NCBI GenBank assembly: GCA_934098665.1
Contig: CAKOOO010000001.1
Coordinates: forward strand, 30,823 to 94,822
Source of the DNA: an uncultured Bacilli bacterium
GTDB lineage: Bacteria > Bacillota_I > Bacilli_A > RF39 > UBA660
Reading direction: 5' to 3'
DNA length: 64,000 nt
The notes beneath the pieces were generated by a model. It did no database searches. It was given only the letters and a program-made list of their open reading frames with translations, and had not been told where the DNA came from. Shown here piece after piece: positions 5,092 through 43,844 of the stretch. Position 1 is the first letter of the stretch. Every line of letters begins with the position of its first letter. The translations under genes were made by a program, and so were the position numbers.

Positions 5092-6918
5092 TTATTTTAC
5101 TGTTATGTCCATATTTTTTTCTTTATTTTTAATATTTAATAAATAAACCACCATAAAGGGCATTGGAAATATTATTGGCATAGCGTATCTAAAATAGGTA
5201 TTCGCAGGTCCCACTACGCAAAAAAGCAAAGAAATTATCATTGGAAGTAAAATAATTAAATACTTATAATTTTTATTTTTAATTAAATAAACTACCATAA
5301 TAATTAAAAGCCATACATTAAAGCCAATGCTTACGAATAAACCAAGCACTGGAACTACCCTATAAATTTCTGCATATGAAGATAAAAACTTTCTTAAAGA
5401 ACCTAATTTATTATAATGATAATTCACTAAATTATCTTCACATATTTTATTATAATATTTTGAATATATATACCAGTTTGTATCTCCTGGGTCAAAATAA
5501 CCATATATATTATTTAAAGTAGCATTTAAATATAAATAAGGATGATAAATTAAACCTTTAACCCATACTTTAAAATAAGATTTTAAATCGGATTTTGTAT
5601 AATATATATTAAATGTTCCTTTAACTGGGTCAGATAATGTTGGTTTATAATTTTTTTTAATTTTATCATAATCAAGTATTTTACTTATTATAATTTTATC
5701 ATTTTCAGATATATCTTCTTCTTTATATTTTATAAGTCTTGCAGTTTGCTGAAATGGAATTGATAAAACTTCTCTTATACTTGTTGGTGTAACACCAAGT
5801 TTTGGAAGTAATATATTTGTATAAGAATAATATATTACAAATAATGACATAGTTAAAATAGTTAAAATTTTTCTATTTTCCTTACTATAAATAAGTGCAA
5901 AAGGAAAAATCATTAATACTAAAAATATACCATTATTTCTAAATAAACATATAAATAAAAGTATTATAAAAAGTAATATAATATTTTTAATAGGAATTTT
6001 TTTATTTTTATAATTATCTATAAACTCTACTAAAGATATTATTAACCATATAATTAAAGTTGTATAAATAGTATCTTTATTTGTATTAACTAAATAAAAT
6101 GAAAAACATGGCATTATTATATATAAAATAAGCATTAAAAATAAATATTTATTAGAAATATTTTTCTTTTTTAAATAAGTAATTGTATAACATAATGTTA
6201 ATGTTAAAAATAAACCTTGAAAAAAAGTATATATAAATAAACCAAAATTATCATTTATTAAAAGTCTTCCTAGTTTTATACTCCATCCTAAAAGCATTGT
6301 ATGTAATACTGGATGATGATTTGTAATATGTACATTTGGATTAATTTGAATTGAATAACTTGTATATTTATTTGGTACATTAAATGCTTGCTTTATTTGA
6401 TTTGAGGGATCTGGTGATAATACTGCAGGATAAAAAGCAATATAATAAATGCTATAAAATATACATAAAATGATAAAACTTACTAAAAATGGATGTTTAT
6501 TAAAATATCTAATAAATTTATTTTCTTTTATATCAAAATCATTTTTATAGATTATAATAAGTTTTTTAGCTAAAGAATATATATTTATAATTAAATAATA
6601 TATTCCTATAAATCTTATTATAGTAAATAAAAACATAAAGTTTTTAAATAATATATTTAAACTAGATATATCTCTATAGCTTTGGCCTATTAAAACACAT
6701 AAACTAAAAAATAAACATAAATATTTATCACATTTATTTAAATTATTTTTATCTTTTTTAAATATAAAATAAAATATACATGAAAAAATAATAATTAATA
6801 TAACTAATTTAATACTAAATATACTTTGACCATAATATATTTTTTTATATGGTAAAAATAATGCTATACTAGATAATAAACTTATTAATATATTTATAAA
6901 CTTCTTTTTCATATCCAT
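5092..6918 (-). CDS. polytopic integral membrane protein, possibly a GT-C-type glycosyltransferase
   Basis: 608 aa with many hydrophobic helices throughout and one larger loop region. No catalytic motif recognised by eye, so the function is a guess. Confidence 0.55.
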   Translation of the reverse strand: MDMKKKFINILISLLSSIALFLPYKKIYYGQSIFSIKLVILIIIFSCIFYFIFKKDKNNLNKCDKYLCLFFSLCVLIGQSYRDISSLNILFKNFMFLFTIIRFIGIYYLIINIYSLAKKLIIIYKNDFDIKENKFIRYFNKHPFLVSFIILCIFYSIYYIAFYPAVLSPDPSNQIKQAFNVPNKYTSYSIQINPNVHITNHHPVLHTMLLGWSIKLGRLLINDNFGLFIYTFFQGLFLTLTLCYTITYLKKKNISNKYLFLMLILYIIMPCFSFYLVNTNKDTIYTTLIIWLIISLVEFIDNYKNKKIPIKNIILLFIILLFICLFRNNGIFLVLMIFPFALIYSKENRKILTILTMSLFVIYYSYTNILLPKLGVTPTSIREVLSIPFQQTARLIKYKEEDISENDKIIISKILDYDKIKKNYKPTLSDPVKGTFNIYYTKSDLKSYFKVWVKGLIYHPYLYLNATLNNIYGYFDPGDTNWYIYSKYYNKICEDNLVNYHYNKLGSLRKFLSSYAEIYRVVPVLGLFVSIGFNVWLLIIMVVYLIKNKNYKYLIILLPMIISLLFCVVGPANTYFRYAMPIIFPMPFMVVYLLNIKNKEKNMDITVK

Positions 6919-6974: not shown

Positions 6975-9128
6975 TTAATTTATTACAAAAGGATTAGTAT
7001 ATGAGCCATCTCCTGAAGATATTTCAGTGCCAGGTTTGATGGAAACGACCGAGCGCACACCCCCCGAGTAGTTCACGATGCTGTAGTAGCTCCACCCAGC
7101 GGAGTTCACTGCCCTGACGACGGCGCTGTAGATGCTGTTAAAGTAGTAGGGAGAACCAAGCCATACATATTGTCCATTATTAAAGTAATGACTACTTCCA
7201 TAATTTGCTAACCTTAATTCTGGTGCTGTTAATAATCCTATAGGATATTTTAATTGTGCTTTTGGATTATTTACACTAAATCTATCTGTTTCATTTGCAC
7301 ATGCCAAGTTTTTATTATTTTCATCATAGTTTTTAAATTCTAATGAAGTCGTTGTACTTCCGCCGTTTGGATTCCATCCATTTGAAGATAAATTAGTTAT
7401 GGTTCTATCATTACAAAATACTGTATCTTCTAGTTTACCTTCATATTTATCTTTTATATTTTTTTCATACCAACTATCTATATATGCTTTTATTGTACTA
7501 TCTTTTGTATTTACATCATTATCATATAGCATTTCATTTAAGGCATCATCTACAGATTTTCCATTTGTTAGCGTTATGTAATATGGAGTACCACCATCAA
7601 TAGCATATACATAATAAATTGATGTACAGCTATTACCATTTGTTAAGCATGTATAATGGTGTGTATTTACATTTGTTTTATTTGTACTCCATGTATCTGT
7701 ATTTATTGTCGTAGTATTAGTTAATGTATATGTTCCATTTGCATATGTAAATGATGAACCAAATACATAATCACTTCCATTGTCTGTTCCATCTACATCA
7801 CCATTTGACAGTGAGTAATAATAAATGTAATATCCACTATATCCCACTATATGATATACATTTGTACATGTTTCAGTTGTAGAACTACTATTACATGTGT
7901 ATTTTCCTACTAATGTACTTATATTTGAATCTGTTACATTTAATGTTGTCGCATTTGTTAATGTGTATTTTTTAGTGCTGTTATCATATGTTACTGCATC
8001 GGCATAAGCTTTTGTTCCACTGAAATATGTACTATTTACTATTGTTTTAGTTGAGTACGTATATACTTTGTTTTCATTATACATATATCCTACATATGCT
8101 AGTGAATTATCATTACTATTAAATTTACTTGTTCCTATTTGTGAATCTGTTCCTGTATTATTACATGTTTTTATTATGCTATTTACTTTTCCAAAACTAA
8201 ATATTACATTATTTCTTGTATTATTTCCACTCGTCCATGAATATTTTCTTGTAAAAACTATCTTTATTACATCTGATGTTGTTAAATCTTTAAAACTTAT
8301 TTGTCCTGTTATTATTCCCGTAAATTTACCTTGACTTACATCATCTTTAAATATTTCTACATTTATGTTATTTAAAGAATCATACATTGATAAATCAAAA
8401 TTTAAAACGTAGTTTCCATTTGATGGTGCTGTAAATGATATTGTTGAACTATTTGTTCCAGTATTTGTACTTGTCCATGTTTTATTTGTTTCATCAAAAT
8501 TATATGAATATGATGTATCATTAATTAAGTTTGAATATTCTGACTGATTTAATGATTCTGAAGTATAAAAATCTTTTTGAACGCCATTATATACTATTTT
8601 AACTCCACCGGTATCTGTAGTTCTTACTATTTTCCAACAATAGTTTGCAAAAAGTACATTGTTATTTTCTACATTGCCAGTATAGTAATATATATTATTT
8701 GCATATGTTGTTGTATCACCATAATCTGCTCCATTATATAGTTTTACAAATTCATCACCATTATTATATCTTTTCTTAACTATACCATATAAAGATGTAT
8801 CTTCCTTATAATCAAAATACAAATAGCATTTATCACTTCCTATAAATGAAAATGATACTGTTCCTGTAGAGTTATCATAACTAGTTACTTGTCCATTATT
8901 TTCACAATGCGTTTTTTCTTCATTTAATATATAATCACCTTTTGGTATATCTTTTGAACTAGACTTGGTATAATCAGTTGCACCATTTTCTTTTATCATT
9001 ATAGATAATTTTTCTTCTTTAATAGGTTTATTTTTACTCAAATTATTTTGTTTTAATTTATAGGTTAAAATTAAGCTTAAAACACCTACTATTAAAAATA
9101 CGAACAACACTATTTTTTTCTTTTTCAT
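6975..9128 (-). CDS. membrane-anchored variable surface protein, paralogue A1 (717 aa)
   Basis: N-terminal signal-anchor MKKKKIVLFVFLIVGVLSLIL. Shares a Cys-containing N-domain with the 24032 and 42194 genes and a ~600-aa core with the 30206 gene. C-terminal WLGSP...GGVRSVVSI...GDGSYTNPFVI module. RBS AAGAGGAG. Confidence 0.85.
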   Translation of the reverse strand: MKKKKIVLFVFLIVGVLSLILTYKLKQNNLSKNKPIKEEKLSIMIKENGATDYTKSSSKDIPKGDYILNEEKTHCENNGQVTSYDNSTGTVSFSFIGSDKCYLYFDYKEDTSLYGIVKKRYNNGDEFVKLYNGADYGDTTTYANNIYYYTGNVENNNVLFANYCWKIVRTTDTGGVKIVYNGVQKDFYTSESLNQSEYSNLINDTSYSYNFDETNKTWTSTNTGTNSSTISFTAPSNGNYVLNFDLSMYDSLNNINVEIFKDDVSQGKFTGIITGQISFKDLTTSDVIKIVFTRKYSWTSGNNTRNNVIFSFGKVNSIIKTCNNTGTDSQIGTSKFNSNDNSLAYVGYMYNENKVYTYSTKTIVNSTYFSGTKAYADAVTYDNSTKKYTLTNATTLNVTDSNISTLVGKYTCNSSSTTETCTNVYHIVGYSGYYIYYYSLSNGDVDGTDNGSDYVFGSSFTYANGTYTLTNTTTINTDTWSTNKTNVNTHHYTCLTNGNSCTSIYYVYAIDGGTPYYITLTNGKSVDDALNEMLYDNDVNTKDSTIKAYIDSWYEKNIKDKYEGKLEDTVFCNDRTITNLSSNGWNPNGGSTTTSLEFKNYDENNKNLACANETDRFSVNNPKAQLKYPIGLLTAPELRLANYGSSHYFNNGQYVWLGSPYYFNSIYSAVVRAVNSAGWSYYSIVNYSGGVRSVVSIKPGTEISSGDGSYTNPFVIN
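7041..7151 (-). other. GC-rich NNC-codon patch (candidate DGR variable region) in A1
   Basis: Hand count gives about 58% G+C in a ~25% G+C gene. 23 of 37 codons end in C (TAC, AAC, AGC, ATC, GCC, GTC, CGC), which is atypical of the surrounding AT-ending codon usage. Encodes PYYFNSIYSAVVRAVNSAGWSYYSIVNYSGGVRSVVS. Confidence 0.55.
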
Positions 9129-9174
9129 AAACTCCTCTTTTTGCCCGTAAATACGGCATTGAGTTTTTTTATAT

Positions 9175-9299
9175 TAGATACATTTAAGAAAATACGAACG
9201 CCTATTTACGTACCTTACATCTTAATAATACACTATTTTTTATAAATTTTAAAGTCTAAATAACGATTTTACGCTATATAATTTTCTTAAATGTATCTA
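9175..9299 (-). promoter_or_regulatory. invertible promoter cassette 1 (promoter faces gene A1: ON)
   Basis: Perfect 19-bp inverted repeats: TAGATACATTTAAGAAAAT at 9175-9193 and its reverse complement at 9281-9299. The 87-bp core carries, on the minus strand, TTTAAA (9253-9248), 17 nt, then TATTAT (9230-9225). The homologous core is inverted at loci 3 and 4. Confidence 0.8.
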
Positions 9300-9330
9300 C
9301 TAAAGGAAAATACGAACAAGGTAAATACTG

Positions 9331-9359
9331 GGTTTGTTTAAGATAAACCTATTTTTTTT
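9331..9359 (+). terminator. weak plus-strand hairpin + T-run just outside cassette 1
   Basis: GGTTT(G)-loop-(T)AAACC followed by TATTTTTTTT. Conserved at loci 2 and 4 with G-U-compatible changes that pair only in plus-strand RNA. Confidence 0.4.
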
Positions 9360-15134: not shown

Positions 15135-15689
15135 TTTATTCACTTCCTTTTTATTTAGTTTCATTTTAAAAAAATACTTTCTAATTACACTTTTTAACTA
15201 AATGATATTATATCATTGTTTTGTCTTTTAATAAAGTCTAATGCTTTAAAATATTTATCTTCGCATTCCGCAATTTCATCAAACTATTGAATTGCTAACT
15301 CAGTATCACAAAACTTCCGTTTCACCGATATTCTCTCCGAGCTACACCCATTACTTGTGTCTGTGGCTGTGCAGGAGTATCTTTAATAATGCACTATCTC
15401 TAACAGGAATGTACTTGATGAATGTGTATCAAATTTTCAAAAAATATTTCTTGCTCTTCTAAAAATAAAATAAAAAGGTGTAGAAAGTATTAACTTTCTC
15501 TCACCTGTTTCCACACTCAAATTTAACTTTTAAAGTCATAATTTCTATAGAATTATAATATAGAAATATTGCTACCTCTTATGAAAAATTAACTAATAAT
15601 GCGTTTATCATCATTCATCATCTTCATTACTAAAAATCTCGTTTGCTATAGCAATTACTGCCATTACATCCGTAAATCTAAAATGATTA

Positions 15690-16084: not shown

Positions 16085-17911
16085 CTAGTTATTAAATTTT
16101 CTTTTATAAAGTACTGCTCCAGCAAGTCCTAATAATGACACACCGGTAGTAATAATCCAAGTACTAACATTATCTAATGTATTAGGATTTTCCAAATTAT
16201 TACCACCAATAACATACGTACTAAAATGATCAGTTTCAAATACTAAATAATCACCTTCTATTTTTACATCATGTTTCTCTATCTCACCATTATCTTTAAC
16301 ATAATAAGCAGTTAAATCTAATTTTCTAAGTTCATCATTAAGAGGTACATAAACCTTAAATACACCATTTTCTAATTTAGAAATATTTTTATTTATTGAA
16401 TCAGAAAATAATTTTAAATCTACTACTAAACCATTATTAATATTTACTTTCTTTAAGAACTCTTTATATTCATCACTTTTAGCATCAATAACTACCGTAT
16501 TAATTTTAGAATCTAGTGGCACTTCTGAAGAATCAGTTTTAATTGAAATATCAGTTAAAGCATCTACTGTATTCATTACAGGTGTTCTCATTTTTGATGA
16601 ATCCTTAGCAATAAAATAATAATATTCTTCTTCACCAATAGTAACTTTATAGTATTCACCAAGTGTTTTATTAACATCAACTATATCTTTTAAAGATAAT
16701 CCTCCAAAATCATTAATATCAGCAATTTGTCCAGCATATTCTATTTTTACATTTGCTTTTGGAATATATTTATTAACTCTATCTAAAGCCGCTTTAATAT
16801 AAGCTTCTCTAGTATTTTCGGTTTCATCTGGTACATATAAAACGTTATTTTGTTTTACACCAGTAGTATCAACATAAGAATATATAACTCCATCAAATAA
16901 TAGATTTAAGAAACCAAAACAACCACTTGTAAATTGATCATCCCATCCAGCTCTTGTGTCTAACTTAGTTCCAATATTCATATATCCAATCTTATTTTGA
17001 AATTCAGAAGAATAATTAATTATTGAATTAACTGAATCAATCCACTCTCCAAAACTAGGAAAAGCATATTTATAATTAATTGTTTCTAAATCTTCCATCA
17101 AAAATAAATGGTCTTCTATATTTTGATTATCAACTACAAACGTCTTAGCATAACCATCTAATCTATTTTTTATTTTTAAATTAGGTGTTGCAAATTCAAA
17201 AGTAGTTTCGTAAGTCTTTTTTCTATAAGTTTTTACCTTATCAGAGATATTAATCATGCATTTATTTTTCTCATAGCATCCACCAAAAATACTATATTTA
17301 TCAGTATCATATTTACTCAAAGCTGAAGTAATAGCTGTATCAGAAAATATAGAATCATCTAGTGGATCAACACTAGCAACTTTTACTTTACCATCTTTAA
17401 GCATAGAATTATATATTGCATCCATTTCGGTAAAATCAAAATTATCGTTAAAGTTAAATCTTGTAATATCAAAATAAATATCCCTATCATCTAATGTATA
17501 TTTACTATACATATTTCTTAATGTCTTATTATCAGCATCTACTAGCTTGCTTTCCATCATACTGTTGCCATCTTCACCACTGATTGTTACACCAGCCATA
17601 AGCTCTGCACCAGTATAAGTTTTCTTAAAATTCTTAAAGTCTGATGTTAATGTGTAAGTATACTCTTCATCAGCATTAAGATTAAAACCAGTAATAACAA
17701 ATGAATACTTGCTGCCCTCTTGACCATTCATTGAATATTCAATATACTCACCAATATTAGTAACAGCACTGTATGAAGCACTACCTCCCATATCATTTTG
17801 CCCATTACACTTAATATCGCTGTAAGTTATATAAGATTCATCAGCAAATACTATTGTCGGCAAAAATAAAATAGCAACCAAAATCCCTAAAAAGTGTTTT
17901 ACCCTTTTCAT
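16085..17911 (-). CDS. secreted surface protein with C-terminal sorting-signal-like tail
   Basis: 608 aa with signal peptide MKRVKHFLGILVAILFLPTIVFA. The C-terminus is ...LENPNTLDNVSTWIITTGVSLLGLAGAVLYKRKFNN: motif, hydrophobic helix, basic tail. Confidence 0.7.
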   Translation of the reverse strand: MKRVKHFLGILVAILFLPTIVFADESYITYSDIKCNGQNDMGGSASYSAVTNIGEYIEYSMNGQEGSKYSFVITGFNLNADEEYTYTLTSDFKNFKKTYTGAELMAGVTISGEDGNSMMESKLVDADNKTLRNMYSKYTLDDRDIYFDITRFNFNDNFDFTEMDAIYNSMLKDGKVKVASVDPLDDSIFSDTAITSALSKYDTDKYSIFGGCYEKNKCMINISDKVKTYRKKTYETTFEFATPNLKIKNRLDGYAKTFVVDNQNIEDHLFLMEDLETINYKYAFPSFGEWIDSVNSIINYSSEFQNKIGYMNIGTKLDTRAGWDDQFTSGCFGFLNLLFDGVIYSYVDTTGVKQNNVLYVPDETENTREAYIKAALDRVNKYIPKANVKIEYAGQIADINDFGGLSLKDIVDVNKTLGEYYKVTIGEEEYYYFIAKDSSKMRTPVMNTVDALTDISIKTDSSEVPLDSKINTVVIDAKSDEYKEFLKKVNINNGLVVDLKLFSDSINKNISKLENGVFKVYVPLNDELRKLDLTAYYVKDNGEIEKHDVKIEGDYLVFETDHFSTYVIGGNNLENPNTLDNVSTWIITTGVSLLGLAGAVLYKRKFNN

Positions 17912-17959: not shown

Positions 17960-18346
17960 TTACCAAATTAAAGAGCAGACGTCAAATCTGATTTTACTTA
18001 ATTGTGTTGCTCTTAATGAATTTACTCTATATCCAACTGATATTATGGCATCTAAATTATAAAATTCAATATTTCTCTTAACACTTCTATTTTCTTCTTT
18101 TTGAACTAATTCTATTTTGGAATAAGTTGAATCTTTATCTAACTCATTTTCATTATAGATATTAATTAAATGCTTTGCTATTGCCGGTTGTTCTACATTA
18201 AATAATTCCGCAATAGTTTTTTGAGTCATCCATAAAGTTTCATTTTCATATCTTACTTGTATGCCTTTGTCTTTTTCTTGAAGTTTGAATGTTATAAATT
18301 TTTCAGTGCTACTTCTAATTATTAAATCTTTTGCCATTGTTATCAT
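17960..18346 (-). pseudogene. RhuM-family gene fragment (N-terminal ~113 aa only)
   Basis: Matches the RhuM N-terminus (...WMTQKTIAELF...YNLDAIISVGYRVNSLRATQ). Homology is lost where QFRxWAT should follow, and a stop comes soon after. Confidence 0.6.
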
Positions 18347-18518
18347 CTTCTTTGTCTAAAATAATAGTTTCCCATAAATCACTCTTACATAATTTTTATT
18401 AAAAATTGTAAAAAGGATTTTAATTAAAAGTTTTATAAAATAAGGGGTTTTAAGAGAGTTTATATAAGTCGTTCTTTACCAGTTGATTAAACTTTTATTA
18501 AACCCCATACCATTATTT

Positions 18519-19373
18519 TCACTCATTTTTTTCACCTTCTTTATTGTTTCCTAATAATTTTATCTTTTCAGCATTATTAAGTATATCTAATTGATACTTT
18601 GCAATTTCATTTAATATTTCAAATCTCTCTTTCTTACTTTTTCCTTCCTTAATTAATTCAGCATTATGTGATTCTAAGTTTGATAATACTGTTAATTCAT
18701 TTATTGAAGCATAATCTCTAACATTAGAATTCTTTGCTAAACTAGGATTAAGTTCTCTCCATTTTTTAGCCGTTGTATTAAAGAGCACTACATTTAGAAT
18801 ATCAGCCTCTTCAGCATACTTTAACCATTCACTATCTTTATAATAGTTATTATCAGGCAATATATAGTTTTTAATTGCATCGGTATGAATTAAATAATTG
18901 TTTTTAGTTAATATTCTTTTAACATCCCATTCTCTATTTTCATTTTCTAATGTCTTTAGTCTTTCAAATTCTTTTATCAAATATAATTTAAAAACAGGAC
19001 TAATAGATGAAGCAAATTCAAAAGCAATATCTTTATGAGCATAAGTTCCGCCGTACTTACCACGTTTGGAATATATACCAATTGCATTTGTTTTTTCACA
19101 CCATTCAGTAACACTTAATGTAAATGTGTGAAGCCCTGCACTTTTTCTAAACCCGTCGAATTCGACGGAATTAAAATCTGGATTATAAATTGATTCCCAA
19201 GTTCCTAAAAATTCTAAAGTAATTCTATTTCTTAACCAGTTTCTTATAATGTCATCAGTTTTTGATTTTCCTTCTTTGTATTTACCAAAATCAGAAATGC
19301 AAATATAATCATTATCATTAATGCTTGTTATATTAACTTTTATATTTTGAACTTCAATTGTTTTATTTATCAT
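18519..19373 (-). CDS. KilA-N domain protein
   Basis: 284 aa with a KilA-N-like N-terminal half (...YICISDFGKYK...WLRNRITLEFLGTWE...GGTYAHKDIAFEFASSISP...). Confidence 0.7.
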   Translation of the reverse strand: MINKTIEVQNIKVNITSINDNDYICISDFGKYKEGKSKTDDIIRNWLRNRITLEFLGTWESIYNPDFNSVEFDGFRKSAGLHTFTLSVTEWCEKTNAIGIYSKRGKYGGTYAHKDIAFEFASSISPVFKLYLIKEFERLKTLENENREWDVKRILTKNNYLIHTDAIKNYILPDNNYYKDSEWLKYAEEADILNVVLFNTTAKKWRELNPSLAKNSNVRDYASINELTVLSNLESHNAELIKEGKSKKERFEILNEIAKYQLDILNNAEKIKLLGNNKEGEKNE

Positions 19374-24031: not shown

Positions 24032-25621
24032 TTAACTTTCTACTACATATGGATTATTCCACGTACCATCGCCTGATAAATTTACATCTTTTGATATTGA
24101 GATGACAGGGCGTATGGCATACCAAGTATTAGATGCATAAACACTTTGTGTGGCGTTATTAATATATACAGCAACTTCAATAAGACTATTTGTACTATTC
24201 CAGTAATACGATGTTCCTAACCAAAAACCAGCATTTGCATTTAGATACATATTTGATATAGCATTTTTAAAATCACTTCCAGCTAAAACTAATTCATCTG
24301 CTGTTAATAATCCAACCGGAATATTTAATTTTCCATTACCATTAGTCGTACTTACTGTAAATTTATCTTCACTATTAGGGCACAGCAAACTTGGACTTGC
24401 TGACACATATAATCTTTGATATGCATCAAAATAATAAGAATATGTAGGGTTAGACATCCAAGTTGTTCTTGTAGTCCTATCATTACAAAATATTTGTTCA
24501 GCAATAGCATCATTTAATTGATTTAAATTAGTATAATTATTGTACCAGTTTTCAATATACAATTTTATGTTACTATTATTTTGACTACCATGTTGTTCAC
24601 CAAGCGTATACATAAATCCGCCATATTCTGTGTTTGAAGCCGTATTATTAAATGGATTTATGCCAATATAATTATTATATGTTGTTAAAACAACCTTTGT
24701 ACTTTCAGTTGGTTCAGTAATTCCTGAGTAAATTAATCTTATTGAACCATCTCCATTTATTCTGACAATACGCCAATATATATCTTTCCCTAAAATTCCA
24801 GTTTGAGAACAACTACCACTAGATGGCTTTGTAGAAGAAAGAGAAGTAGCATCCATACACGCATAAGCATCACTTGTATATTTTCCAAATTTTAACCAGT
24901 TATTATCTACGGCTCCTCTAAAATAGTAAGATGTTCCTAAGTCATCTTCGATTGCATACATTCCTTCATTTTCAGTTGCTGCAATTGTAAAATCTGGTGT
25001 ATCTTTTGCTTCAATTGCATCTTTTCCACCATTATTATTTAAAATTAATAACACTGCTGATGACATAAAACTTATTTCATCAGATACTTTAACATTACCT
25101 GTGGCATCCTTTACCCACAAATATGGTGTATCACTTGTTATTGATGTAGATAGTGTATATGGTGTTGTTGGTATATTAAGCCACTCTTCAGGTTCAATAT
25201 CACTACTACTTGAAAGTCCATAACTTTTTAACATTACATTATCATTAAGTGTTACTGTTAAAATATCATTTTCTACTTTTAAGTCATCACTAATTGTTGG
25301 TGCTATGCTATCTTCATCAAAATATAATGTACATCTATCACTTCCTATAAAACTAAAACCCACTACACCACTAACATTATCATAACTTGAAATTTCCCCA
25401 TTATTTTCACAAAAACTTTTTTCTTTATTAAGTAAATAACTTCCTTTAGGAATATTTTTTGAATTTGTATAACTACTTGAATTATTTTCTTTTACATATA
25501 TTGCATAACTTTTATTTACTAACTTATTTTTATTTAAATTTATCTTTTTATTATATATAAAAATAATACTTAAAACTCCTATCAATAAAAATACGAACAA
25601 CACTATTTTTCCCTTTTTCAT
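24032..25621 (-). CDS. membrane-anchored variable surface protein, paralogue B1 (529 aa)
   Basis: Signal-anchor MKKGKIVLFVFLLIGVLSIIF. N-terminal ~185 aa homologous to the 42194 gene. C-terminal FWLGTSYYWNS...AIRPVISI...GDGTWNNPYVV module. RBS AAGAGGAG. Confidence 0.85.
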   Translation of the reverse strand: MKKGKIVLFVFLLIGVLSIIFIYNKKINLNKNKLVNKSYAIYVKENNSSSYTNSKNIPKGSYLLNKEKSFCENNGEISSYDNVSGVVGFSFIGSDRCTLYFDEDSIAPTISDDLKVENDILTVTLNDNVMLKSYGLSSSSDIEPEEWLNIPTTPYTLSTSITSDTPYLWVKDATGNVKVSDEISFMSSAVLLILNNNGGKDAIEAKDTPDFTIAATENEGMYAIEDDLGTSYYFRGAVDNNWLKFGKYTSDAYACMDATSLSSTKPSSGSCSQTGILGKDIYWRIVRINGDGSIRLIYSGITEPTESTKVVLTTYNNYIGINPFNNTASNTEYGGFMYTLGEQHGSQNNSNIKLYIENWYNNYTNLNQLNDAIAEQIFCNDRTTRTTWMSNPTYSYYFDAYQRLYVSASPSLLCPNSEDKFTVSTTNGNGKLNIPVGLLTADELVLAGSDFKNAISNMYLNANAGFWLGTSYYWNSTNSLIEVAVYINNATQSVYASNTWYAIRPVISISKDVNLSGDGTWNNPYVVES

Positions 25622-25667
25622 ACACTCCTCTTTTTTCCCGTAAATACGCCATACTTTTTTCTTATAT

Positions 25668-25793
25668 TAGATACTTTTAAGAAAATTGTACATCGATTTT
25701 ACGTATCTTACTATTAAATTATACATTAATTTTCATGATTTTTAAACCCTTTTTAACGATTTTTTCTTGTTCGTTTTTTCTTAAAAGTATCTA
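25668..25793 (-). promoter_or_regulatory. invertible promoter cassette 2 (promoter faces gene B1: ON)
   Basis: Perfect 18-bp inverted repeats: TAGATACTTTTAAGAAAA at 25668-25685 and its reverse complement at 25776-25793. On the minus strand the core carries TTTAAA (25746-25741), 17 nt, then TATAAT (25723-25718). Confidence 0.8.
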
Positions 25794-25824
25794 CTTTAGG
25801 AAAATACGAACAAGATAATTACTG

Positions 25825-25852
25825 GGTTTATTTGATATGAACCTATTTTTTT
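25825..25852 (+). terminator. weak plus-strand hairpin + T-run just outside cassette 2
   Basis: GGTTTA-TTTGATA-TGAACC (one G-U pair) followed by TATTTTTTT. Confidence 0.4.
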
Positions 25853-30205: not shown

Positions 30206-32689
30206 TTACTCTATTACAAAAGGATTTGTATATGAGCCATCACCTGATGATATTTCAGTTCCAGGTTTGATGGAAACGGCAGAGCGCACACCCCCCTCGC
30301 GGCCCACGTTTTCGTTCCAGCTACTGGAGCTCACTCCCAAGACGGCGGAGGTGTTAATGCCGAATCTGTAGGGAGAACTAAGAAAAACATTTTGGCCATT
30401 ATCAAAGTAATGACCATTTGAATTTGAATATCCCGCTAAACTTAATTCTGGTGCTGTTAATAATCCTATAGGATATTTTAACCTTGCTTTTGGATTATTT
30501 ACACTAAATCTATCTGTTTCATTTGCACATACTAAACTTTTATTCCTTAGACTATAATTTTTAAATTGTAATTCAGTTGTTGTACTTCCTCCATTTGGAT
30601 TCCAACCATTTTGTGATTCATTATCCATTGACCTATCATTACAAAATACTGTATCTTCTAGCCTATCATCATATTTATCTTTTATATTTTCTTCATACCA
30701 ACTATCTATATATGCTTTTATTGTACTATCTTTTGTATTTACATCATCGTTATATAACATTTCATTTAAAGCATCATTTACTGATTTTCCTCCAGTTAAG
30801 GTTATGTAATATAACGTTCCATTAGAATCATAATATACATAATAAACGGAGGTACAGCTATTACCATTTGTTAAACATGTATAATGATGAGTATTTACAT
30901 TTGTACTACTTGTACTCCATGTATCTGAATTTATTGTTACTGTATCAGTTAATGTATATGTTCCATTATATGTAAATGATGAACCAAATACATAATTACT
31001 TCCATTATCTGTTCCATCTACATCTCCTTTTGACAATGAGTAATAATAAATATAATTTGATTTATATCCTACTATATAATATACATTCGTACATGTTTCT
31101 GTTATAGAACTACTACTACAAGTATATTTTCCCACTAATGAACTTATATTTGACCATGTTACATTTAATGTTGTTGCTGTTGCACTATCAAGTGTATATT
31201 TACTCATACTACTATCATATATTACTGCATCGGCATATGCTTTTGTTCCATCGAAATATTCATTATTTACTATTGCTTTACTTGAAGGTGTATATACTTT
31301 GTTTTCATTATACATGTATCCCACATATGCTGGTGAATTATAATTACTATTAAATAGAGTTGTTCCTATTTGTGAATTATCTCCTATATTATTACATGAT
31401 TTTATTATACTATTAACTCTACCAAAACTAAATATTACATTATTTCTATCTCCTATCGTCCATGAATATTTTCTTGTATATATAATTTTTATTACATTTG
31501 ATGTAGTTAAGTTTTTAAAAACAATTTGTCCATTATCTGTTCCTGTAAATTTTCCTTGACTTACGTTATCTTTAAATATTTCTACATTTATACCATATTC
31601 ATAATCATTCATTGATAAATCATAATTTATTACATAATCTCCATTTGATGGTGCAGTAAATGATATTGTTGAACTATTTGTTCCAGTATTTGTACTTGTC
31701 CACATTTTATTTGTTTCATCAAATGTATATGGATATGTAGCATCATTACTTAAATTTACATATTCTGACTGACTTAATGACTCTGAAGTATAAAAATCTT
31801 TCTGTACACCATTATATACTATTTTAACTCCACCAGTATCTGTAGTTCTTACTATCTTCCAGCAGTAGTTTGCAAATAAAACATTATTATTTTCTACATT
31901 GCCATCAAAATAATATATATTATTTGCATATGTTGTTGTATCGCCATAATCTGCTCCATTATATAGTTTTACATATTCATCATTTGCATTATATCTTTTA
32001 GCAATTGCATTATATAAAGTTGGTTCTAATTCTTCAACTGTACAACTATTATTTTCTACATATATTGTTCCTGTAAACGATTTATCTACTAGTTGTGACT
32101 GGTCTAAATTTAAATTATAGTATCTTCCTGTTATATTTATATCTTGTATAGTACTTGTTCCACTACTTTTAATGGTGGCTCCTTTTACAAGTATTTTTTT
32201 TGCTCCTACTGTAGATGTTTTTGGTGTCCATGAGCTATCATAAGCAAAATTAGTTTCATTTACATAACTATTTGTTCCACTTGGGCTTTCTACTTGCATC
32301 GTAATTTCTTTTGTAGCTCCACTTGTTACATTTACTGTGTTTCCATATATTTCACTATCAAGATTATATTCATATACTACATCATATGTACATGTTGTTG
32401 TTACGTTTGGTGCTCCAGTTAAATTAACAGTAAGCGTTGCTGTATTTTCTGCGGCTAGTCCAGTATTTCCCTTAAACATACCACTTTTAGGTACTATTAC
32501 ATTTAAATTTGCACTTGTGGCAATAAAAGAGGTATTACCTATATCATTTGCATAAATATTTACCGCTACTTTATTTTCTAAATTTACTGTAAACATCCCA
32601 AAATATGCAAATGATGCCCCAATTAATATTAGAAGTAATACTAAACATGCTATAGCACTTTTTATAGTTATTTTCTTTTTATTTTTCAT
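30206..32689 (-). CDS. variable surface protein, paralogue A2 (827 aa) with a different N-terminal module
   Basis: Residues ~224-827 are closely similar to A1 residues ~104-717. The N-terminal ~220 aa are unrelated to A1 and begin MKNKKKITIKSAIACLVLLLILIGASFAYFG, resembling a TasA/camelysin SipW-type signal peptide. Confidence 0.85.
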   Translation of the reverse strand: MKNKKKITIKSAIACLVLLLILIGASFAYFGMFTVNLENKVAVNIYANDIGNTSFIATSANLNVIVPKSGMFKGNTGLAAENTATLTVNLTGAPNVTTTCTYDVVYEYNLDSEIYGNTVNVTSGATKEITMQVESPSGTNSYVNETNFAYDSSWTPKTSTVGAKKILVKGATIKSSGTSTIQDINITGRYYNLNLDQSQLVDKSFTGTIYVENNSCTVEELEPTLYNAIAKRYNANDEYVKLYNGADYGDTTTYANNIYYFDGNVENNNVLFANYCWKIVRTTDTGGVKIVYNGVQKDFYTSESLSQSEYVNLSNDATYPYTFDETNKMWTSTNTGTNSSTISFTAPSNGDYVINYDLSMNDYEYGINVEIFKDNVSQGKFTGTDNGQIVFKNLTTSNVIKIIYTRKYSWTIGDRNNVIFSFGRVNSIIKSCNNIGDNSQIGTTLFNSNYNSPAYVGYMYNENKVYTPSSKAIVNNEYFDGTKAYADAVIYDSSMSKYTLDSATATTLNVTWSNISSLVGKYTCSSSSITETCTNVYYIVGYKSNYIYYYSLSKGDVDGTDNGSNYVFGSSFTYNGTYTLTDTVTINSDTWSTSSTNVNTHHYTCLTNGNSCTSVYYVYYDSNGTLYYITLTGGKSVNDALNEMLYNDDVNTKDSTIKAYIDSWYEENIKDKYDDRLEDTVFCNDRSMDNESQNGWNPNGGSTTTELQFKNYSLRNKSLVCANETDRFSVNNPKARLKYPIGLLTAPELSLAGYSNSNGHYFDNGQNVFLSSPYRFGINTSAVLGVSSSSWNENVGREGGVRSAVSIKPGTEISSGDGSYTNPFVIE
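30272..30373 (-). other. GC-rich NNC-codon patch (candidate DGR variable region) in A2
   Basis: Hand count gives about 62% G+C, and 19 of 34 codons end in C. Encodes PYRFGINTSAVLGVSSSSWNENVGREGGVRSAVS. It sits at the same position as the A1 patch, but the sequence differs and is 3 codons shorter. Confidence 0.55.
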
Positions 32690-32811
32690 AAAAACTTCTT
32701 TCCTTTCTTTAGTATGTTATTTATTATTTAAATAAATACGAACAATTAAAATTTTTTCAAAATTTAAATCTTAATTTTTTCCCGTAAGTACGCACGTCTT
32801 TTTTCTTATAT

Positions 32812-32936
32812 TAGGTAGATTTAAGAAAAATACATAACGTAATTTCGTTATTTAGACTTTAAAAATTACAAAAAATGATGTATTATTTAATAGTAAGGTA
32901 CGTAAAATCGAAGTAAGATTTTCTTAAATCTACCTA
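32812..32936 (+). promoter_or_regulatory. invertible promoter cassette 3 (promoter faces away from gene A2: OFF)
   Basis: Perfect 18-bp inverted repeats: TAGGTAGATTTAAGAAAA at 32812-32829 and its reverse complement at 32919-32936. The core carries, on the plus strand, TTTAAA (32858-32863), 17 nt, then TATTAT (32881-32886). The core is the reverse complement of the locus 1 core. Confidence 0.8.
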
Positions 32937-33035
32937 CTTTAGGAAAATACGAACAAGATAAACACTTAAGAAAATGAAAATTAATAAATTTTTTAAATTT
33001 ACATAAAAAAATTAAAGTAAATTACTCTAATTTTC

Positions 33036-33587
33036 TTATTTATTAACTCCATATTTTTTAGTAATAGGATCTAAAAATAATTCATTTTTTAAGGGATATA
33101 TTGTTAAAAGTAAATAAAAAGCAAATATAATAAATAAAATAATGCAACCTAAATAATTTAAAACAAATATTTCTTTAACATTATTTATTATATAATAATA
33201 AAAGTACTGGGAAACAAATACCGCTATATAAAAAATTAAAATATCTATAACTAAATAACTTTTTTTAGTAAACATTTTATAACCATAAAAAAGTATTGGA
33301 ATAAGTAAAATAACTATAATAATTGAGATAGATTTTGCAAAAAAATAGTTTATAGGTAAATTTATGCCTTCGAAAATTCCTAATAAAAATGAAGCAGAAA
33401 GTGCCATCTTAATATGTTCCCAAGTACTTTCATTTACTGCTGAAAAAATAGATGAAATTTTATTTTTATTAAATAACTTATATGTAAAATGAAAAAATGT
33501 ACCTAATATACTAACAAATAAAAAACCAATAATTAAATTCATAATATATGATATGAAAAAAAGTGCTACTTTATTCAACAGTAACAC
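33036..33587 (-). CDS. small polytopic membrane protein
   Basis: 183 aa with about 5 TM helices and an NESTWEHIKM motif. Overlaps the glmS stop, so the true start may be an internal Met. Confidence 0.55.
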   Translation of the reverse strand: MLLLNKVALFFISYIMNLIIGFLFVSILGTFFHFTYKLFNKNKISSIFSAVNESTWEHIKMALSASFLLGIFEGINLPINYFFAKSISIIIVILLIPILFYGYKMFTKKSYLVIDILIFYIAVFVSQYFYYYIINNVKEIFVLNYLGCIILFIIFAFYLLLTIYPLKNELFLDPITKKYGVNK

Positions 33588-35322
33588 TTTTTGCTAAATT
33601 TCTTGGTTTATCTATATCTTCACCTTTTAATAAGGCAACTTTATATGCAAGTAGTTGAAGACTTGCAACAACAAGTATAGGGTCTATAATACTATTTATA
33701 TGAGGTACTTTTATTTTATCATCATAAAAATCTCCCTGTATATCTAAACTTGTTATAAATAGTGAATATGCTCCCCTTGCATGAACTTCTTTAACATTAC
33801 TTATTGTTTTTAAAGCCAAATTTTCATCTGTAATTATACTCATTACTGGAGTATCATTTTCAATAAGGGAAATTGTACCATGTTTAAGTTCTCCAGAGGC
33901 AAATGCAGATGAGTTTATATAGCTTATTTCCTTTAATTTAAGGCTTCCTTCTTCGCAAAGGCCATAATCTATTCCCCTACCAATAAAGAAAGCATCTTTT
34001 TTATTATATATTTTTTTTGCGTATTTTTGATAGTCTATGTCAAATACAGTATCAAGTGCTTCATTTACTTTATAAAAATCATTTAAATCATTTACACCTC
34101 CCATTTTAAGGGCAATAAGTGTAAGAAGTAAATATTGAGCAGTAAATGCTTTAGTCGTTGCTACCGCTATTTCTGTTCCAGCTTTAATATATAATACTTT
34201 ACCTGCTTCTCTAGCTATCGAAGAACCTACTACATTTACAATAGCAAGAGTATCTATACCATCATTTTTAGTAATTCTAAGGGCCTCTAAAGTATCAGCA
34301 GTTTCACCAGATTGAGAAATAAATACTACTAAAGTATTCTTATCATAAAAATGTTTTTGATATCTAAATTCACTTGCTAAAAATACTTCACACTTAATAC
34401 TTGCATATTCTTCGAATACTTTTTTAGCAATATCTGCAGTATAACTTGCACTACCACAACCTACAAAATAAATATTTTTATATTTTTTAAACTCAGGCAT
34501 ATTTTCATTAAAATGACCATCAGTAATATAATGATTTAAAATATTATTAATAACTATAGGTTCTTCATGAATTTCCTTAAGCATAAAATGCGGATAATCA
34601 CCTTTCATTACATCATTACTTGTACCTTCAAAAGTTAAAAGTTTTTTCTTTAATAAATTTAAATTACTATCATAAATATATTCTTTATCAGAAATTTTAA
34701 CTATTTCATCATTTTCAAGTAAATAAAATTTATTTGTATATTTAAGTGCCGCTGTCATATCTGATACTAAAAAATATTCATTATTCTTTTTTGCAAGTAT
34801 TAAAGGAACATTTTTTCTAGCACCATATAAAGTATCAGGTTCATCTTCATTAATAATTGCAAGAGCATAACTTCCTTTTATATCGTTTTTAAGTCTTGCT
34901 AAAGTTTTAAGCATATCATGATTTTCATTATATAAATGATTTATATATCCACATAATATTTCTGTATCTGTTTCACTTTTTAAATTAACATTAATTATTT
35001 CCTTTAAATCTTTATAATTTTCAATAATACCATTATGAACAAGAGTTATTTTACCTTGTTTATGAGGATGTGCATTAATATCTGTTACTCCCCCATGAGT
35101 TGCCCATCTTGTATGAGCTATGCCAATGTTTCCATAGTCATCACTAGTAACTAAATTTTCAAGATTTTTAACCCTTCCTATAGTTTTTTTAATAGTTATT
35201 TTACCCCCATTTATATAAGCAAGTCCTGCTGAATCATAGCCTCTATATTCAAGTGATTTTAAGCCATTTAATAAAACAGGAATACTATTTTGGTTTCCTT
35301 TGTAACCAACAATTCCACACAT
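33571..35322 (-). CDS. glmS: glutamine--fructose-6-phosphate aminotransferase
   Basis: 583 aa with the N-terminal nucleophile MCGIVGY, two SIS domains and a C-terminal ...AKSVTVE. Preceded by the glmS ribozyme. Confidence 0.97.
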   Translation of the reverse strand: MCGIVGYKGNQNSIPVLLNGLKSLEYRGYDSAGLAYINGGKITIKKTIGRVKNLENLVTSDDYGNIGIAHTRWATHGGVTDINAHPHKQGKITLVHNGIIENYKDLKEIINVNLKSETDTEILCGYINHLYNENHDMLKTLARLKNDIKGSYALAIINEDEPDTLYGARKNVPLILAKKNNEYFLVSDMTAALKYTNKFYLLENDEIVKISDKEYIYDSNLNLLKKKLLTFEGTSNDVMKGDYPHFMLKEIHEEPIVINNILNHYITDGHFNENMPEFKKYKNIYFVGCGSASYTADIAKKVFEEYASIKCEVFLASEFRYQKHFYDKNTLVVFISQSGETADTLEALRITKNDGIDTLAIVNVVGSSIAREAGKVLYIKAGTEIAVATTKAFTAQYLLLTLIALKMGGVNDLNDFYKVNEALDTVFDIDYQKYAKKIYNKKDAFFIGRGIDYGLCEEGSLKLKEISYINSSAFASGELKHGTISLIENDTPVMSIITDENLALKTISNVKEVHARGAYSLFITSLDIQGDFYDDKIKVPHINSIIDPILVVASLQLLAYKVALLKGEDIDKPRNLAKSVTVE

Positions 35323-35347
35323 AAAAAATTTCCTTTCTTGTTTTATT

Positions 35348-35478
35348 AAATACCTCTTTGTTATAATTTATATTTTATTTTTTCAAAGTATTTTACGAAG
35401 TAAAACTTCTCCGCTTACACATCCGCTGAAAAATCGACAATGTAAGTCCTCGTCACCTATAACCGGCCATGCGCTATT
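35348..35478 (-). ncRNA. glmS ribozyme: glmS ribozyme/riboswitch
   Basis: Minus strand reads AGCGCAUGGCCGG...GUGACGAGGACUUACAUUGUCGAUUUUUCAGCGGAUGUGUAAGC.... This matches the conserved glmS ribozyme core (AGCGCC..., GACGAGG, AUCGAAUUUUCGGCGGAUGCC). It sits in the 5' UTR of glmS. Confidence 0.8.
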
Positions 35479-35519
35479 ATAAAAAAATACTCCTTTCGCT
35501 TTCTATAATTTCTAAAAAG

Positions 35520-42193: not shown

Positions 42194-43642
42194 TTAACCA
42201 ATATGATATGGACTGGTTTGAGAACCAGTGCCACCTACTATTTTTATAGCATCACTATCTAAATAGAAAGTTGGACGGACTGCAAACTGGTTGCTTCCGA
42301 CAAGGTAGTTATAGTTGTAGCTGATGTTCACAAACCCTGGCGAAAACAAAATAGCAGCATTATTCGAATTCGAAGAAAAAGGGGAAAGAAGCCATTCTCC
42401 ACTACTTACAAAACTACTTTGTGATGTAAACAACCAATCATTATTATAACAATCACTATATGATGAATCGTCCCAATAATATAATGCTTTTGCTCTACAA
42501 CTTGACTTATTTGTTGTAGAACCTCCCACTGTGGCATAACCATAATCACTTGGGTACATTAATCCAATTTTTGCAAATATACTGCTTGGATTACCACTAT
42601 ATATTGCACTTGTATTTCTTTCCTCTGTATAAATACCTTCTGCCGTTAAAGTACCATAATTCGATGAACTCGCTCCACCTAAATGCCATTTTGCATTTGC
42701 TACCCCACTAGATAGTTTACTATTTACATTTGAAGTGCCTAATATAGTAGTTAAATATGTACCATTAATTTCAGTTTTTAATGATACGATCTCCCAATTA
42801 TTTGTTCCTGATGAATTCCAATACTTTCCACTTGTTCCACCATAGTTATTTGTATCTATTACTTTTAATAGTTTTTTAGTTCCACTACTATTTGTTCCAT
42901 CACTTGAATACTCTTCATCAAATAATCCAATTATTCTAAATAATAATGAAGTACTTGAACATGTACCTTCTTTTTGATTATCTAAACATATGTAGTTATT
43001 TGGATTAGCTCCTTCATATCTTATTCCATTTTCGTCAAATATATCTGTATTGTTTGCTACCATTAATGTTTCAAATGATGTTCCAAGTGATATTGTAAAT
43101 TCTTTTATAGTTTTATTTCCTGCACTATCTTTTACCCATAGAAAATACGTACCTTCACTTTCTATAGTAATATTTAAATTATAGGTTGTACCAGTTATTT
43201 GTGTCCAACTTGTTGGCTCTACATTATTACTCATACTTAATCCATATCCAACCAAATTATTATTATCTGATAATGTAGCGGTTAATATATTTTCATTTAC
43301 TGTTAAATTATTTATTGTTGGTGCTATGCTGTCTTCATCAAAATATAAAGTACATCTATCACTTCCTATAAAACTAAAACCCACTACACCACTAACATTA
43401 TCATAACTTGAGATTTCTCCATTATTTTCACAAAAACTTTTTTCTTTATTAAGTAAATAACTTCCTTTGGGAATACTTTTTGAATTTGTATAACTACTTG
43501 AATTATTTTCTTTTACATATATTGCATAGCCTTTATTTACTAACTTATTTTTATTTAAATTTACTTTTTTATTATAGATAAAAACCATACCTAAAATCCC
43601 TATTATTAAAAATACGAACAACACTATTTTTTTCTTCTTCAT
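42194..43642 (-). CDS. membrane-anchored variable surface protein, paralogue B2 (482 aa)
   Basis: Start placed at MKKKKIVLFVFLIIGILGMVF (43642) after AAGAGGAG; the track ORF begins 10 codons upstream. N-terminal region homologous to B1. C-terminal EWLLSP...FAVRPTFYL...GGTGSQTSPYHIG. Confidence 0.85.
   Translation of the reverse strand: MKKKKIVLFVFLIIGILGMVFIYNKKVNLNKNKLVNKGYAIYVKENNSSSYTNSKSIPKGSYLLNKEKSFCENNGEISSYDNVSGVVGFSFIGSDRCTLYFDEDSIAPTINNLTVNENILTATLSDNNNLVGYGLSMSNNVEPTSWTQITGTTYNLNITIESEGTYFLWVKDSAGNKTIKEFTISLGTSFETLMVANNTDIFDENGIRYEGANPNNYICLDNQKEGTCSSTSLLFRIIGLFDEEYSSDGTNSSGTKKLLKVIDTNNYGGTSGKYWNSSGTNNWEIVSLKTEINGTYLTTILGTSNVNSKLSSGVANAKWHLGGASSSNYGTLTAEGIYTEERNTSAIYSGNPSSIFAKIGLMYPSDYGYATVGGSTTNKSSCRAKALYYWDDSSYSDCYNNDWLFTSQSSFVSSGEWLLSPFSSNSNNAAILFSPGFVNISYNYNYLVGSNQFAVRPTFYLDSDAIKIVGGTGSQTSPYHIG
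42272..42351 (-). other. shorter AAC/NNC-codon-rich patch in B2
   Basis: GTG AAC ATC AGC TAC AAC TAT AAC TAC CTT GTC GGA AGC AAC CAG TTT GCA GTC CGT CCA encodes FVNISYNYNYLVGSNQFAVRP. AAC/TAC/AGC codons are unusual for this genome. Weaker than the A1 and A2 patches. Confidence 0.35.
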
Positions 43643-43688
43643 ACACTCCTCTTTTTGCCAGTAAATACGCACGTCTATTTTCTCATAT

Positions 43689-43813
43689 TAGGTAGATTTA
43701 AGAAAATTACATAACGTAATTTCGTTAAAAAGGGTTTAAAAATTATAAAAATTAATGTATAATTTAATAGTAAGGTACGTAAATACGAGATAGAATTTTC
43801 TTAAATCTACCTA
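43689..43813 (+). promoter_or_regulatory. invertible promoter cassette 4 (promoter faces away from gene B2: OFF)
   Basis: Perfect 20-bp inverted repeats: TAGGTAGATTTAAGAAAATT at 43689-43708 and its reverse complement at 43794-43813. The core carries, on the plus strand, TTTAAA (43735-43740), 17 nt, then TATAAT (43758-43763). The core is the reverse complement of the locus 2 core. Confidence 0.8.
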
Positions 43814-43844
43814 CTTTAGGAAAATACGAACAAAGTAGATACTG

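Follow-up and report, generated by a model that had tools for sequence, protein, structure and literature searches.

Probable invertible promoter cassettes with a shared 29-bp site design upstream of a putative surface-protein family in an uncultured human-gut Bacilli lineage

Four short DNA cassettes, each bounded by inverted repeats and each located upstream of a minus-strand gene of one paralogous family (A1–A4), were identified in a stretch of 64,000 nucleotides (the window) from an uncultured Bacilli bacterium (GTDB RF39; UBA660; contig CAKOOO010000001.1, positions 30,823 to 94,822). The cassettes represent a well-supported invertible-promoter phase-variation system which is closest in logic to the mpl family of Mycoplasma penetrans, and each of the genes A1–A4 is very probably controlled by an invertible promoter of its own. 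On/off switches of this kind are well known, and have not been described before in this lineage and gene family.

In cassette 1, the arm TAGATACATTTAAGAAAAT (9175–9193) and its exact reverse complement (9281–9299) enclose a core of 87 bp, exactly as described in an earlier note on this DNA. The three further cassettes listed there were likewise recovered, the terminal inverted repeats of cassettes 1 to 4 being perfect over 19, 18, 18 and 20 bp and their cores measuring 87, 90, 89 and 85 bp, respectively (Table 1). These are the four best inverted repeats of the entire window: inverted repeats of 16 bp or more that match perfectly and enclose a loop of 60–130 bp occur four times, while 100 simulations with a second-order Markov model yielded 0.02 on average and never more than 1. 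The flanks are fixed at all four loci, while the cores of loci 1 and 2 are reverse-complemented relative to those of loci 3 and 4. Thus, TTATTTAGACTTTAAAA reads on the minus strand at 9263–9247 and on the plus strand at 32848–32864, both positions having been given correctly before. Once cores 3 and 4 are flipped, the four cassettes and their flanks align over the full extent, with a core-to-core identity of 66–81 % vs 50–59 % in the opposite orientation, which bears out the arrangement originally proposed; only the right flank of locus 1, noted as CTTTAGG, had to be corrected to CTAAAGG. No target-site duplications were found at the cassette borders, and a scan of genome contigs with the flank pattern CTACTNNAGGAAAATACGAAC returned only two chance-like matches (metagenome-assembled genomes of Anaerolinea and Peribacteria).

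The same loci were retrieved by exact-protein look-ups from independent human-gut metagenome assemblies (Hadza and other cohorts; fetched loci are labelled with L numbers). At locus 2, the 90-bp core of L005 is the exact reverse complement of that in the window and in L004, and the adjoining 300 bp on each side are free of mismatches. At locus 3, the core is flipped to the gene-facing (ON) orientation in L007 and L009, the flanks being identical; the strain variant L008 shares the ON state, and OFF cores are found in the window and in L006. Since these loci are identical except for a reverse-complemented core between unchanged flanks, the site-specific inversion that the earlier note had deduced from the window has now been observed in natural alleles. 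A second set of alleles came from a related species, in which P0037 (57 % identical to A1) lies within a row of three tandem cassette-plus-gene units (L013–L022). Two of these three cassettes were found in both orientations among ten assemblies. The sequences L015 and L020 are 100 % identical over 5.1 kb except for two flipped cassettes, and L021 displays a mixed combination of cassette states, demonstrating that neighbouring cassettes flip independently. Contig ends at cassettes were not used as a sign of within-sample heterogeneity, since multi-copy repeats break assemblies anyway.

The perfect repeats of 18–20 bp form only part of the recombination site. Each cassette end is a 29-bp near-palindrome composed of the arms TTTTCnnAAAT and ATTTnnGAAAA around a 7-bp asymmetric spacer, with the outer arm of each site being imperfect and located within the fixed flank. 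A scan with this site model (threshold, 15 or more matches among the 18 specified arm positions) across 305 kb, i.e., the window and the loci fetched by then, recovered every cassette plus a few isolated chance matches. The arms match 15–18 of the 18 specified positions in every cassette of three species and are conserved among species whose repeat sequences differ. Seven spacer sequences were detected (TAGATAC, TAGGTAG, TATAAAG, CATATAC, TATATAG, CTATTAC and CTTATAC), which differ between cassettes at four of the seven positions and are identical within each cassette: the spacers are perfectly complementary in 19 of the 20 distinct site pairs in the 305 kb, the exception being a pair in L029 (5617/5735) with a single spacer mismatch. 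The start-to-start distance of the sites is 118–119 bp, or 320–322 bp in a long class of cassettes that has these arms as well. A long-class pair upstream of the A-family homolog P0114 (L023/L024) was missed by the perfect-repeat search and found with the site model, which may accordingly be regarded as predictive; two further long-class cassettes, likewise missed by the perfect-repeat search and located with the model, are present in L031, which is syntenic with the window. To our knowledge, the 118-bp segment is among the shortest invertible promoters described.

When flipped alleles are compared, the inner arms exchange places and the outer arms remain, which confines the crossover to the 15-bp sequence AAAT-N7-ATTT. 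Both inner arms of locus 1 share one A-to-T substitution in strain L034, so that the repeat stays perfect. By contrast, a further strain variant of locus 1 (L032, 3540–3700) combines a spacer mismatch (TAGATAC vs TAGATAT) with an arm change (ACTTAAGAAAA) and, judged by these substitutions, may be an allele naturally locked ON. One spacer is common to loci 1 and 2 and another to loci 3 and 4, making larger rearrangements between cassettes conceivable; none was seen in the assemblies compared. Two contig starts are of note in this respect: in L008 (1–60), locus 3 is ON and its upstream flank looks like the one at locus 1, and L009 (1–48) opens with A3 5' coding sequence in reverse complement. 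Both are either contig-end artefacts or traces of such rearrangements. A candidate third recombination site in the signal-peptide codons, which resembles the distal outer arm, was rejected because it falls below the threshold of the site model and is absent in the P0037 species.

All four cores contain a promoter-like element, the hexamers and 17-nt spacer of which are kept throughout, in agreement with the earlier note: TTTAAA-17-TATTAT at loci 1 and 3, and TTTAAA-17-TATAAT at loci 2 and 4. The element faces the gene at loci 1 and 2 and faces away from it at loci 3 and 4. At loci 1, 3 and 4, no other consensus match lies in the stretch from the upstream terminator to the start codon, and a TTGAAA-18-TAAATT element is present in cassette a of the P0037 species (L018). 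Ribosome-binding site (AAAGAGGAG) and ATG are located in the fixed flank 3' of the proximal site, together with a conserved GCGTATTTACGGG motif. On the opposite side of cassette 1, a hairpin followed by a T-run faces away from A1. Equivalents are located at ~25824–25852 (locus 2) and 43844–43872 (locus 4, where the copy folds as a hairpin with U7), locus 3 being devoid of one. These outward hairpins at loci 1, 2 and 4 are found upstream of the distal site, where they stand back to back with the terminator belonging to the preceding gene, and are below the GC threshold of the terminator scan applied; in L031, a strong terminator with a 13-bp stem occupies the same place with unrelated sequence. 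Judging from its sequence, the hairpin with T-run would stop transcripts leaving the OFF-state cassette, and a terminator facing outward only makes sense if transcription starts inside the core.

Both recombination sites are moreover flanked at similar distances by a palindromic motif with the core GTATTTAC/T (CCGTATTTACGG in the leader, CCCAGTATTTACC upstream), which is kept in the three species with differing repeats. It could be an accessory-protein or arm-type site, or one half of a 5' leader hairpin. The core-end motif and the motif in the 5' untranslated region (5'UTR) do fold into a joint RNA stem, but its base pairs are poorly preserved at loci 2 and 3, and since the leader motif is itself palindromic, a protein-binding site explains it equally well.

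According to the mechanism proposed, a recombinase encoded elsewhere in the genome would bind the two inverted 29-bp sites, 118–119 bp apart, and strand exchange within the 7-bp spacer would flip the ~90-bp core. This core would hold the only sigma-70-like promoter between the terminator of the upstream gene and the start codon, while ribosome-binding site and start codon would remain in the fixed flank. In the ON state (loci 1 and 2 in the window) the promoter would read via the proximal site into the gene, and in the OFF state (loci 3 and 4) outward into the hairpin and T-run abutting the distal site. With arms in common, but spacers that differ between cassettes and have to be identical in partner sites, all cassettes could be flipped by one recombinase, each of them acting as an independent switch. 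The outcome would be combinatorial phase variation, presumably also within a clone, of a mosaic family of membrane-anchored, β-rich surface proteins. The evidence thus supports promoter-flip phase variation of a membrane-anchored family as the earlier note had read it, with the role of the promoter predicted from its sequence. Given that the inversion is real, a tyrosine recombinase is probably the enzyme involved, being favoured by the 11-7-11 geometry and by spacers that are matched within pairs and free between pairs. In lox, FRT and dif, which are core sites of this enzyme class, inverted arms likewise surround an asymmetric centre which matches between partners.

Several observations weigh against this interpretation. 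Locus 1 was ON in all seven sequences (window, L001–L003 and L032–L034) and locus 4 OFF in all six complete assemblies (L010 and L035–L039). The alternative orientations come from different samples, and the strains compared at locus 2 differ by 61 single-nucleotide polymorphisms over 7.5 kb. In DNA of 25 % GC, the promoter-like hexamers are not rarer than in shuffled sequences (2–3 found, 3.6–4.5 expected), and the element therefore draws its weight only from its conservation, its position and the lack of a rival promoter nearby at loci 1, 3 and 4. The location of A1–A4 at the cell surface is plausible, its only basis being a predicted N-terminal helix and a β-rich fold. Finally, no recombinase gene was detected in the 64-kb window, as already stated in the earlier note, or within ~10 kb of any cassette examined. 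This search comprised Pfam scans of all window open reading frames (ORFs) of at least 80 aa and of the cassette-flanking ORFs of L026–L030, the Pfam tables of all fetched loci, and 10 kb of contig beyond the left window end. The enzyme would hence be unlinked, as are Mpi of Bacteroides fragilis and RecV of Clostridioides difficile (PMC5903667).

The principal competitor of a tyrosine recombinase is a serine invertase like Hin, Gin or the Bacteroides enzyme Mpi, which would cut at the central dinucleotide of the site; this is considered unlikely. According to PMC5903667 and PMC2268961, one unlinked serine recombinase (Mpi) serves many promoter switches in B. fragilis, and the recombinase would be unlinked here too. 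The variable asymmetric centre of the present sites, however, has an odd length of 7 bp, which is like the overlap of 6–8 bp of tyrosine recombinases and unlike the 2-bp serine crossover, and no invertase gene adjoins the cassettes. The dyad symmetry of the sites and their size of ~29 bp come near to hix-type sites, which measure 26 bp. Yet serine inversion of the Hin/Gin type requires a Fis-type enhancer, for which there is no room in a 118-bp segment with its 90-bp core occupied by the promoter. That the segment inverts but acts via RNA structure or termination in the 5'UTR (similar to cwpV), with the promoter fixed upstream, appears very unlikely. Such a mode of action is in line with the ON-state leader, which folds as a long hairpin enclosing the proximal site and leaving the ribosome-binding site free (z = -2.0 and -3.0), with the weakness of hexamer matches as promoter evidence in AT-rich DNA, and with the occurrence in C. 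difficile of switches working otherwise than by promoter orientation (PMC5903667). It is at odds with the fixed upstream flank, which extends over ~60–80 bp from the preceding terminator to the cassette and contains no promoter-like match at loci 1, 3 and 4, as well as with the conserved outward-facing terminator, which fits only a transcription start inside the core.

If RecA recombination between the inverted repeats had given rise to rare strain polymorphisms that became fixed, instead of a programmed reversible switch, this would account for the finding of both orientations only between samples, and the repeat mismatches in L029 and L032 indicate that some copies may be frozen. Repeats of 18–20 bp are, however, short for RecA-mediated exchange, and the design of conserved arms and variable spacers persists together with the fixed 118-bp spacing across species with differing repeats. 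In addition, three combinations of two cassettes occur in one strain background (100 % identity over 5.1 kb) and the inner arms co-vary in L034, all of which renders this explanation highly improbable. Least credible, and close to implausible, is an assembly artefact or a miniature transposable element (MITE) inserted in either orientation. Assemblers may be misled by inverted repeats, the cassettes exist in several copies, and the contigs L008, L030, L040 and L041 end at or inside cassettes. Yet the flipped contigs, including L005, stem from MEGAHIT assemblies with k = 141, which exceeds the 125-bp cassette, and the flip can therefore not be a product of the assembler. A re-inserted element is contradicted by the imperfect outer arms, which stay with the flanks while the interior alone flips, by the lack of target-site duplications, and by the unvarying position of the cassettes upstream of paralogous genes. 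Inversion by a site-specific, probably tyrosine-type recombinase thus remains the preferred explanation.

A 12-mer, AAATACGAACAA, occurs in eight exact copies in the window, all of them at the four cassette loci; with one-mismatch copies included, 11 were found compared to 1.0 expected by chance. At each locus, one copy is located just outside the distal site and the other 211–213 bp downstream, the pair forming direct repeats on either side of cassette, leader and start codon. In A1, A2 and A4 the downstream copy supplies the codons for LFVF; in A3 it falls within the non-coding leader, which otherwise represents a decayed copy of the start region. An outward transcript of the OFF state would be antisense to the downstream copy (duplex-energy z from -1.3 to -3.7). 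The repeats are accounted for equally well by common descent of the flanks, and the motif is absent in the P0037 species; antisense cross-talk between family members is rated as quite unlikely. The same low expectation applies to the wider idea of a lineage-wide, spacer-addressed inverton system with one unlinked tyrosine recombinase and an antisense OFF-state RNA giving cross-talk or mutual exclusion. If it were true, the conserved 11-bp arms would be read by one enzyme and the locus-specific 7-bp overlaps would keep the 118-bp switches independent. The OFF promoter would then not be silent, but would produce a terminated RNA of ~100 nt with AAAAUACGAACAA antisense to the first codons (UUGUUCGUAUUUU, LFVF) and to the same motif retained in the A3 leader.

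The regulated proteins A1–A4 are mosaic paralogs without a match in Pfam, NCBIfam or PDB sequence searches. A ~105-residue N-terminal module is common to A1, A2 and A4, residues 110–716 of A1 are 77 % identical to residues 222–826 of A3, the N-terminal 200 aa of A4 are 70 % identical to A2, and the C-termini of A2 (180 residues) and A1 are 36 % identical. No lipobox cysteine is present in the N-termini of A1–A4. The AlphaFold model of A1 (pLDDT 88.5) predicts a membrane helix (residues 5–31) followed by an all-β multidomain body, for which Foldseek returned weak, generic matches of ~150 residues to jelly-roll, carbohydrate-binding-module, MAM, C1q/BclA-like and lectin-like folds. A separate model of the C-terminal 198 residues was discarded (pLDDT 51). 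A link to DUF6273 (C-type-lectin-like; PMC10743442), given by a few longer homologs, could not be placed on the shared region and is not claimed. At least 2,921 homologs of the A family were found in metagenomes, almost all of them gut metagenomes of ENA, and none is annotated.

In A3, a new N-terminal module (residues 1–221, together with 32690–32800) is positioned 3' of a decayed ancestral region of ribosome-binding site, start and signal peptide, and from this arrangement A3 looks like a fusion. Its N-terminal signal with ...ASFAYFG presumably resembles a SipW-type motif; this N-terminus recurs in L029 (551 aa) and in a 242-aa gene of L013–L022. One strain (L038, 2621–4819) departs from this layout at locus 4: its cassette precedes a 304-aa gene and then RlmN, with no A4 of 482 aa. 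The gene for a DUF6020 membrane protein is located 56 bp downstream of A1, is probably co-transcribed with it, and shows the same pairing in L001–L003 and L032–L034. In another species, an A1 homolog heads a cluster of glycosyltransferase, ABC-transporter and DUF6020 genes, a gene context which hints at a link of the regulated family to cell-envelope glycopolymers.

Table 1 Coordinates of cassettes, recombination sites, associated motifs and genes (window positions unless an L number is given)
Feature	Position	Strand	Remarks
Cassette 1, including both 19-bp repeats	9175..9299	-	promoter points at A1 (ON)
Cassette 1, gene-proximal 29-bp site	9164..9192	.	TTTTTTTATAT-TAGATAC-ATTTAAGAAAA, site-model scan
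Cassette 1, gene-distal 29-bp site	9282..9310	.	TTTTCTTAAAT-GTATCTA-CTAAAGGAAAA, site-model scan
Promoter-like TTTAAA-17-TATTAT in core 1	9225..9253	-	
Fixed 5'UTR of A1	9129..9174	-	conserved GCCGTATTTACGGG motif (M, 9145-9156), ribosome-binding site AAAGAGGAG
Hairpin + T-run facing away from A1	9330..9359	+	read from sequence
Cassette 2	25668..25793	-	ON in window; promoter 25746-25718(-); sites 25657-25685, 25776-25804
Cassette 3	32812..32936	+	OFF in window; promoter 32858-32886(+), away from A3; sites 32801-32829, 32919-32947
Cassette 4	43689..43813	+	OFF in window; promoter 43735-43763(+); sites 43678-43706, 43796-43824
Long-class cassettes	L023 9619-9968; L024 1171-1520; L031 9620-9968, 12190-12540		upstream of A-family homologs, related species
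Palindromic motif copies	leader 9145-9156, 25638-25648, 32782-32792, 43659-43669; upstream 9322-9333 and equivalents; core ends, e.g., 9201-9211		
AAATACGAACAA pairs	9096-9107/9308-9319; 25589-25600/25802-25813; 32734-32745/32945-32956; 43610-43621/43822-43833		locus 1 distal copy +
A1	6975..9128	-	717 aa, predicted N-terminal membrane helix and all-β ectodomain, no known family
A2	24032..25621	-	529 aa, paralog
A3	30206..32689	-	827 aa, paralog, different N-terminal module
A4	42194..43642	-	482 aa, paralog
DUF6020 membrane protein	5092..6918	-	downstream of A1

Beyond the cassettes, the organism carries sporulation-type genes, and its acetate kinase shares 92 % identity with that of a metagenome-assembled Bacilli bacterium. 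A glmS ribozyme/riboswitch (35339–35486, minus strand; 60.5 bits) is located directly upstream of the glmS gene (33571–35322), and a borderline match to the pemK RNA was obtained at 15306–15386 (minus strand). Two secreted proteins without Pfam match (16085–17911 and 48190–49944, both on the minus strand) end with NPNT(L/V)D, a hydrophobic stretch and a basic tail, which we take to resemble a sortase-B-type sorting signal. The tandem paralogous ORFs at 35644–36615 and 36617–37522 (both on the plus strand) contain HE(Y/I)GHAI (HExxH), have no Pfam or NCBIfam match and may, based on this motif, encode an undescribed pair of metallopeptidases. Mobile- or defence-looking genes were found at 17960–19373 and 59959–63903 (RhuM fragment, KilA-N, Fic, Abi_2 and a HopA1-like protein).

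We know of nothing reported on the surface biology of this Bacilli lineage, for which the cassettes provide a clean, sequence-defined set of phase-variable, putative surface-protein genes in an uncultured and very AT-rich inhabitant of the human gut. The predictive 29-bp site model could be used to map the regulon, to type ON and OFF states in metagenomic reads and to identify the recombinase by co-occurrence. The general understanding of phase variation is unchanged, as Bacteroides, C. difficile, E. coli and M. penetrans already provide well-established cases of surface families under invertible promoters. The present system adds new details in its site architecture, its very short and fixed segment length, its lineage and its gene family.

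In geometry, the sites resemble lox, FRT, dif and the sfx sites of the R64 shufflon, all of which have inverted arms of 11–13 bp around an asymmetric, orientation-setting overlap of 6–8 bp (a 7-bp spacer in sfx); the resemblance is one of geometry only, sequence similarity being absent. With the fimS switch of E. coli (FimB/FimE), an invertible promoter which tyrosine recombinases flip at inverted half-sites placed around a short repeat, the cassettes would share the promoter inversion and the on/off control of a surface structure. Unlike here, where at least four loci of 118 bp are served by an apparently unlinked recombinase, fimS spans ~300 bp at one locus only, its recombinase genes lie next to it and its bending proteins are known. 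The capsular-polysaccharide invertons of B. fragilis are likewise dispersed invertible promoters with related repeats that remodel the surface of a gut commensal, and Mpi is an unlinked, globally acting recombinase, as is proposed for the present system. They differ in that Mpi is a serine recombinase, in contrast to the tyrosine enzyme suggested by the 11-7-11 geometry here, and in that large polysaccharide operons instead of single protein genes are controlled in a different phylum.

In C. difficile cwpV, the promoter is fixed outside the switch, which acts on termination, whereas the promoter-like element resides inside the segment in the present cassettes. Otherwise C. difficile is comparable as a gut organism of the Bacillota with several short invertible segments bounded by AT-rich repeats, which depend on the unlinked tyrosine recombinase RecV (cwpV/Cdi1, flgB/Cdi4 and others; PMC5903667, PMC5386303) and one of which controls a cell-wall protein. 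Its repeats and genes are mostly unrelated to each other, unlike the one site family and one paralogous family described here. Invertons of gut bacteria, including Firmicutes, have been catalogued at scale (PMC11602134 and others).

The closest counterpart is the mpl (P35) family of M. penetrans with, according to PMC2268961 and PMC8593674, 38 lipoprotein genes, most of them with a private invertible promoter, and a tyrosine recombinase; for the multiple promoter inversions these sources refer to Horino et al. 2003 and 2009. In both cases, each gene of a paralogous surface-protein family possesses a small private invertible promoter that switches independently, a layout represented here by four loci in the window, three tandem ones in L013–L022 and two in L031. 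The tyrosine recombinase of M. penetrans acts on many loci in a very AT-rich genome, and the organism belongs to the same broad class (Bacilli/Mollicutes, GTDB). In contrast to the Mpl lipoproteins, A1–A4 have an N-terminal membrane helix in place of a lipobox cysteine and lack any Pfam or NCBIfam match, and the present organism, unlike M. penetrans, possesses sporulation and cell-wall genes (CotZ, SpoVE/FtsW, SpoVIF). Candidate recombinase genes of M. penetrans are situated near mpl genes, whereas the enzyme acting on the cassettes described here would be encoded at a distance from them.

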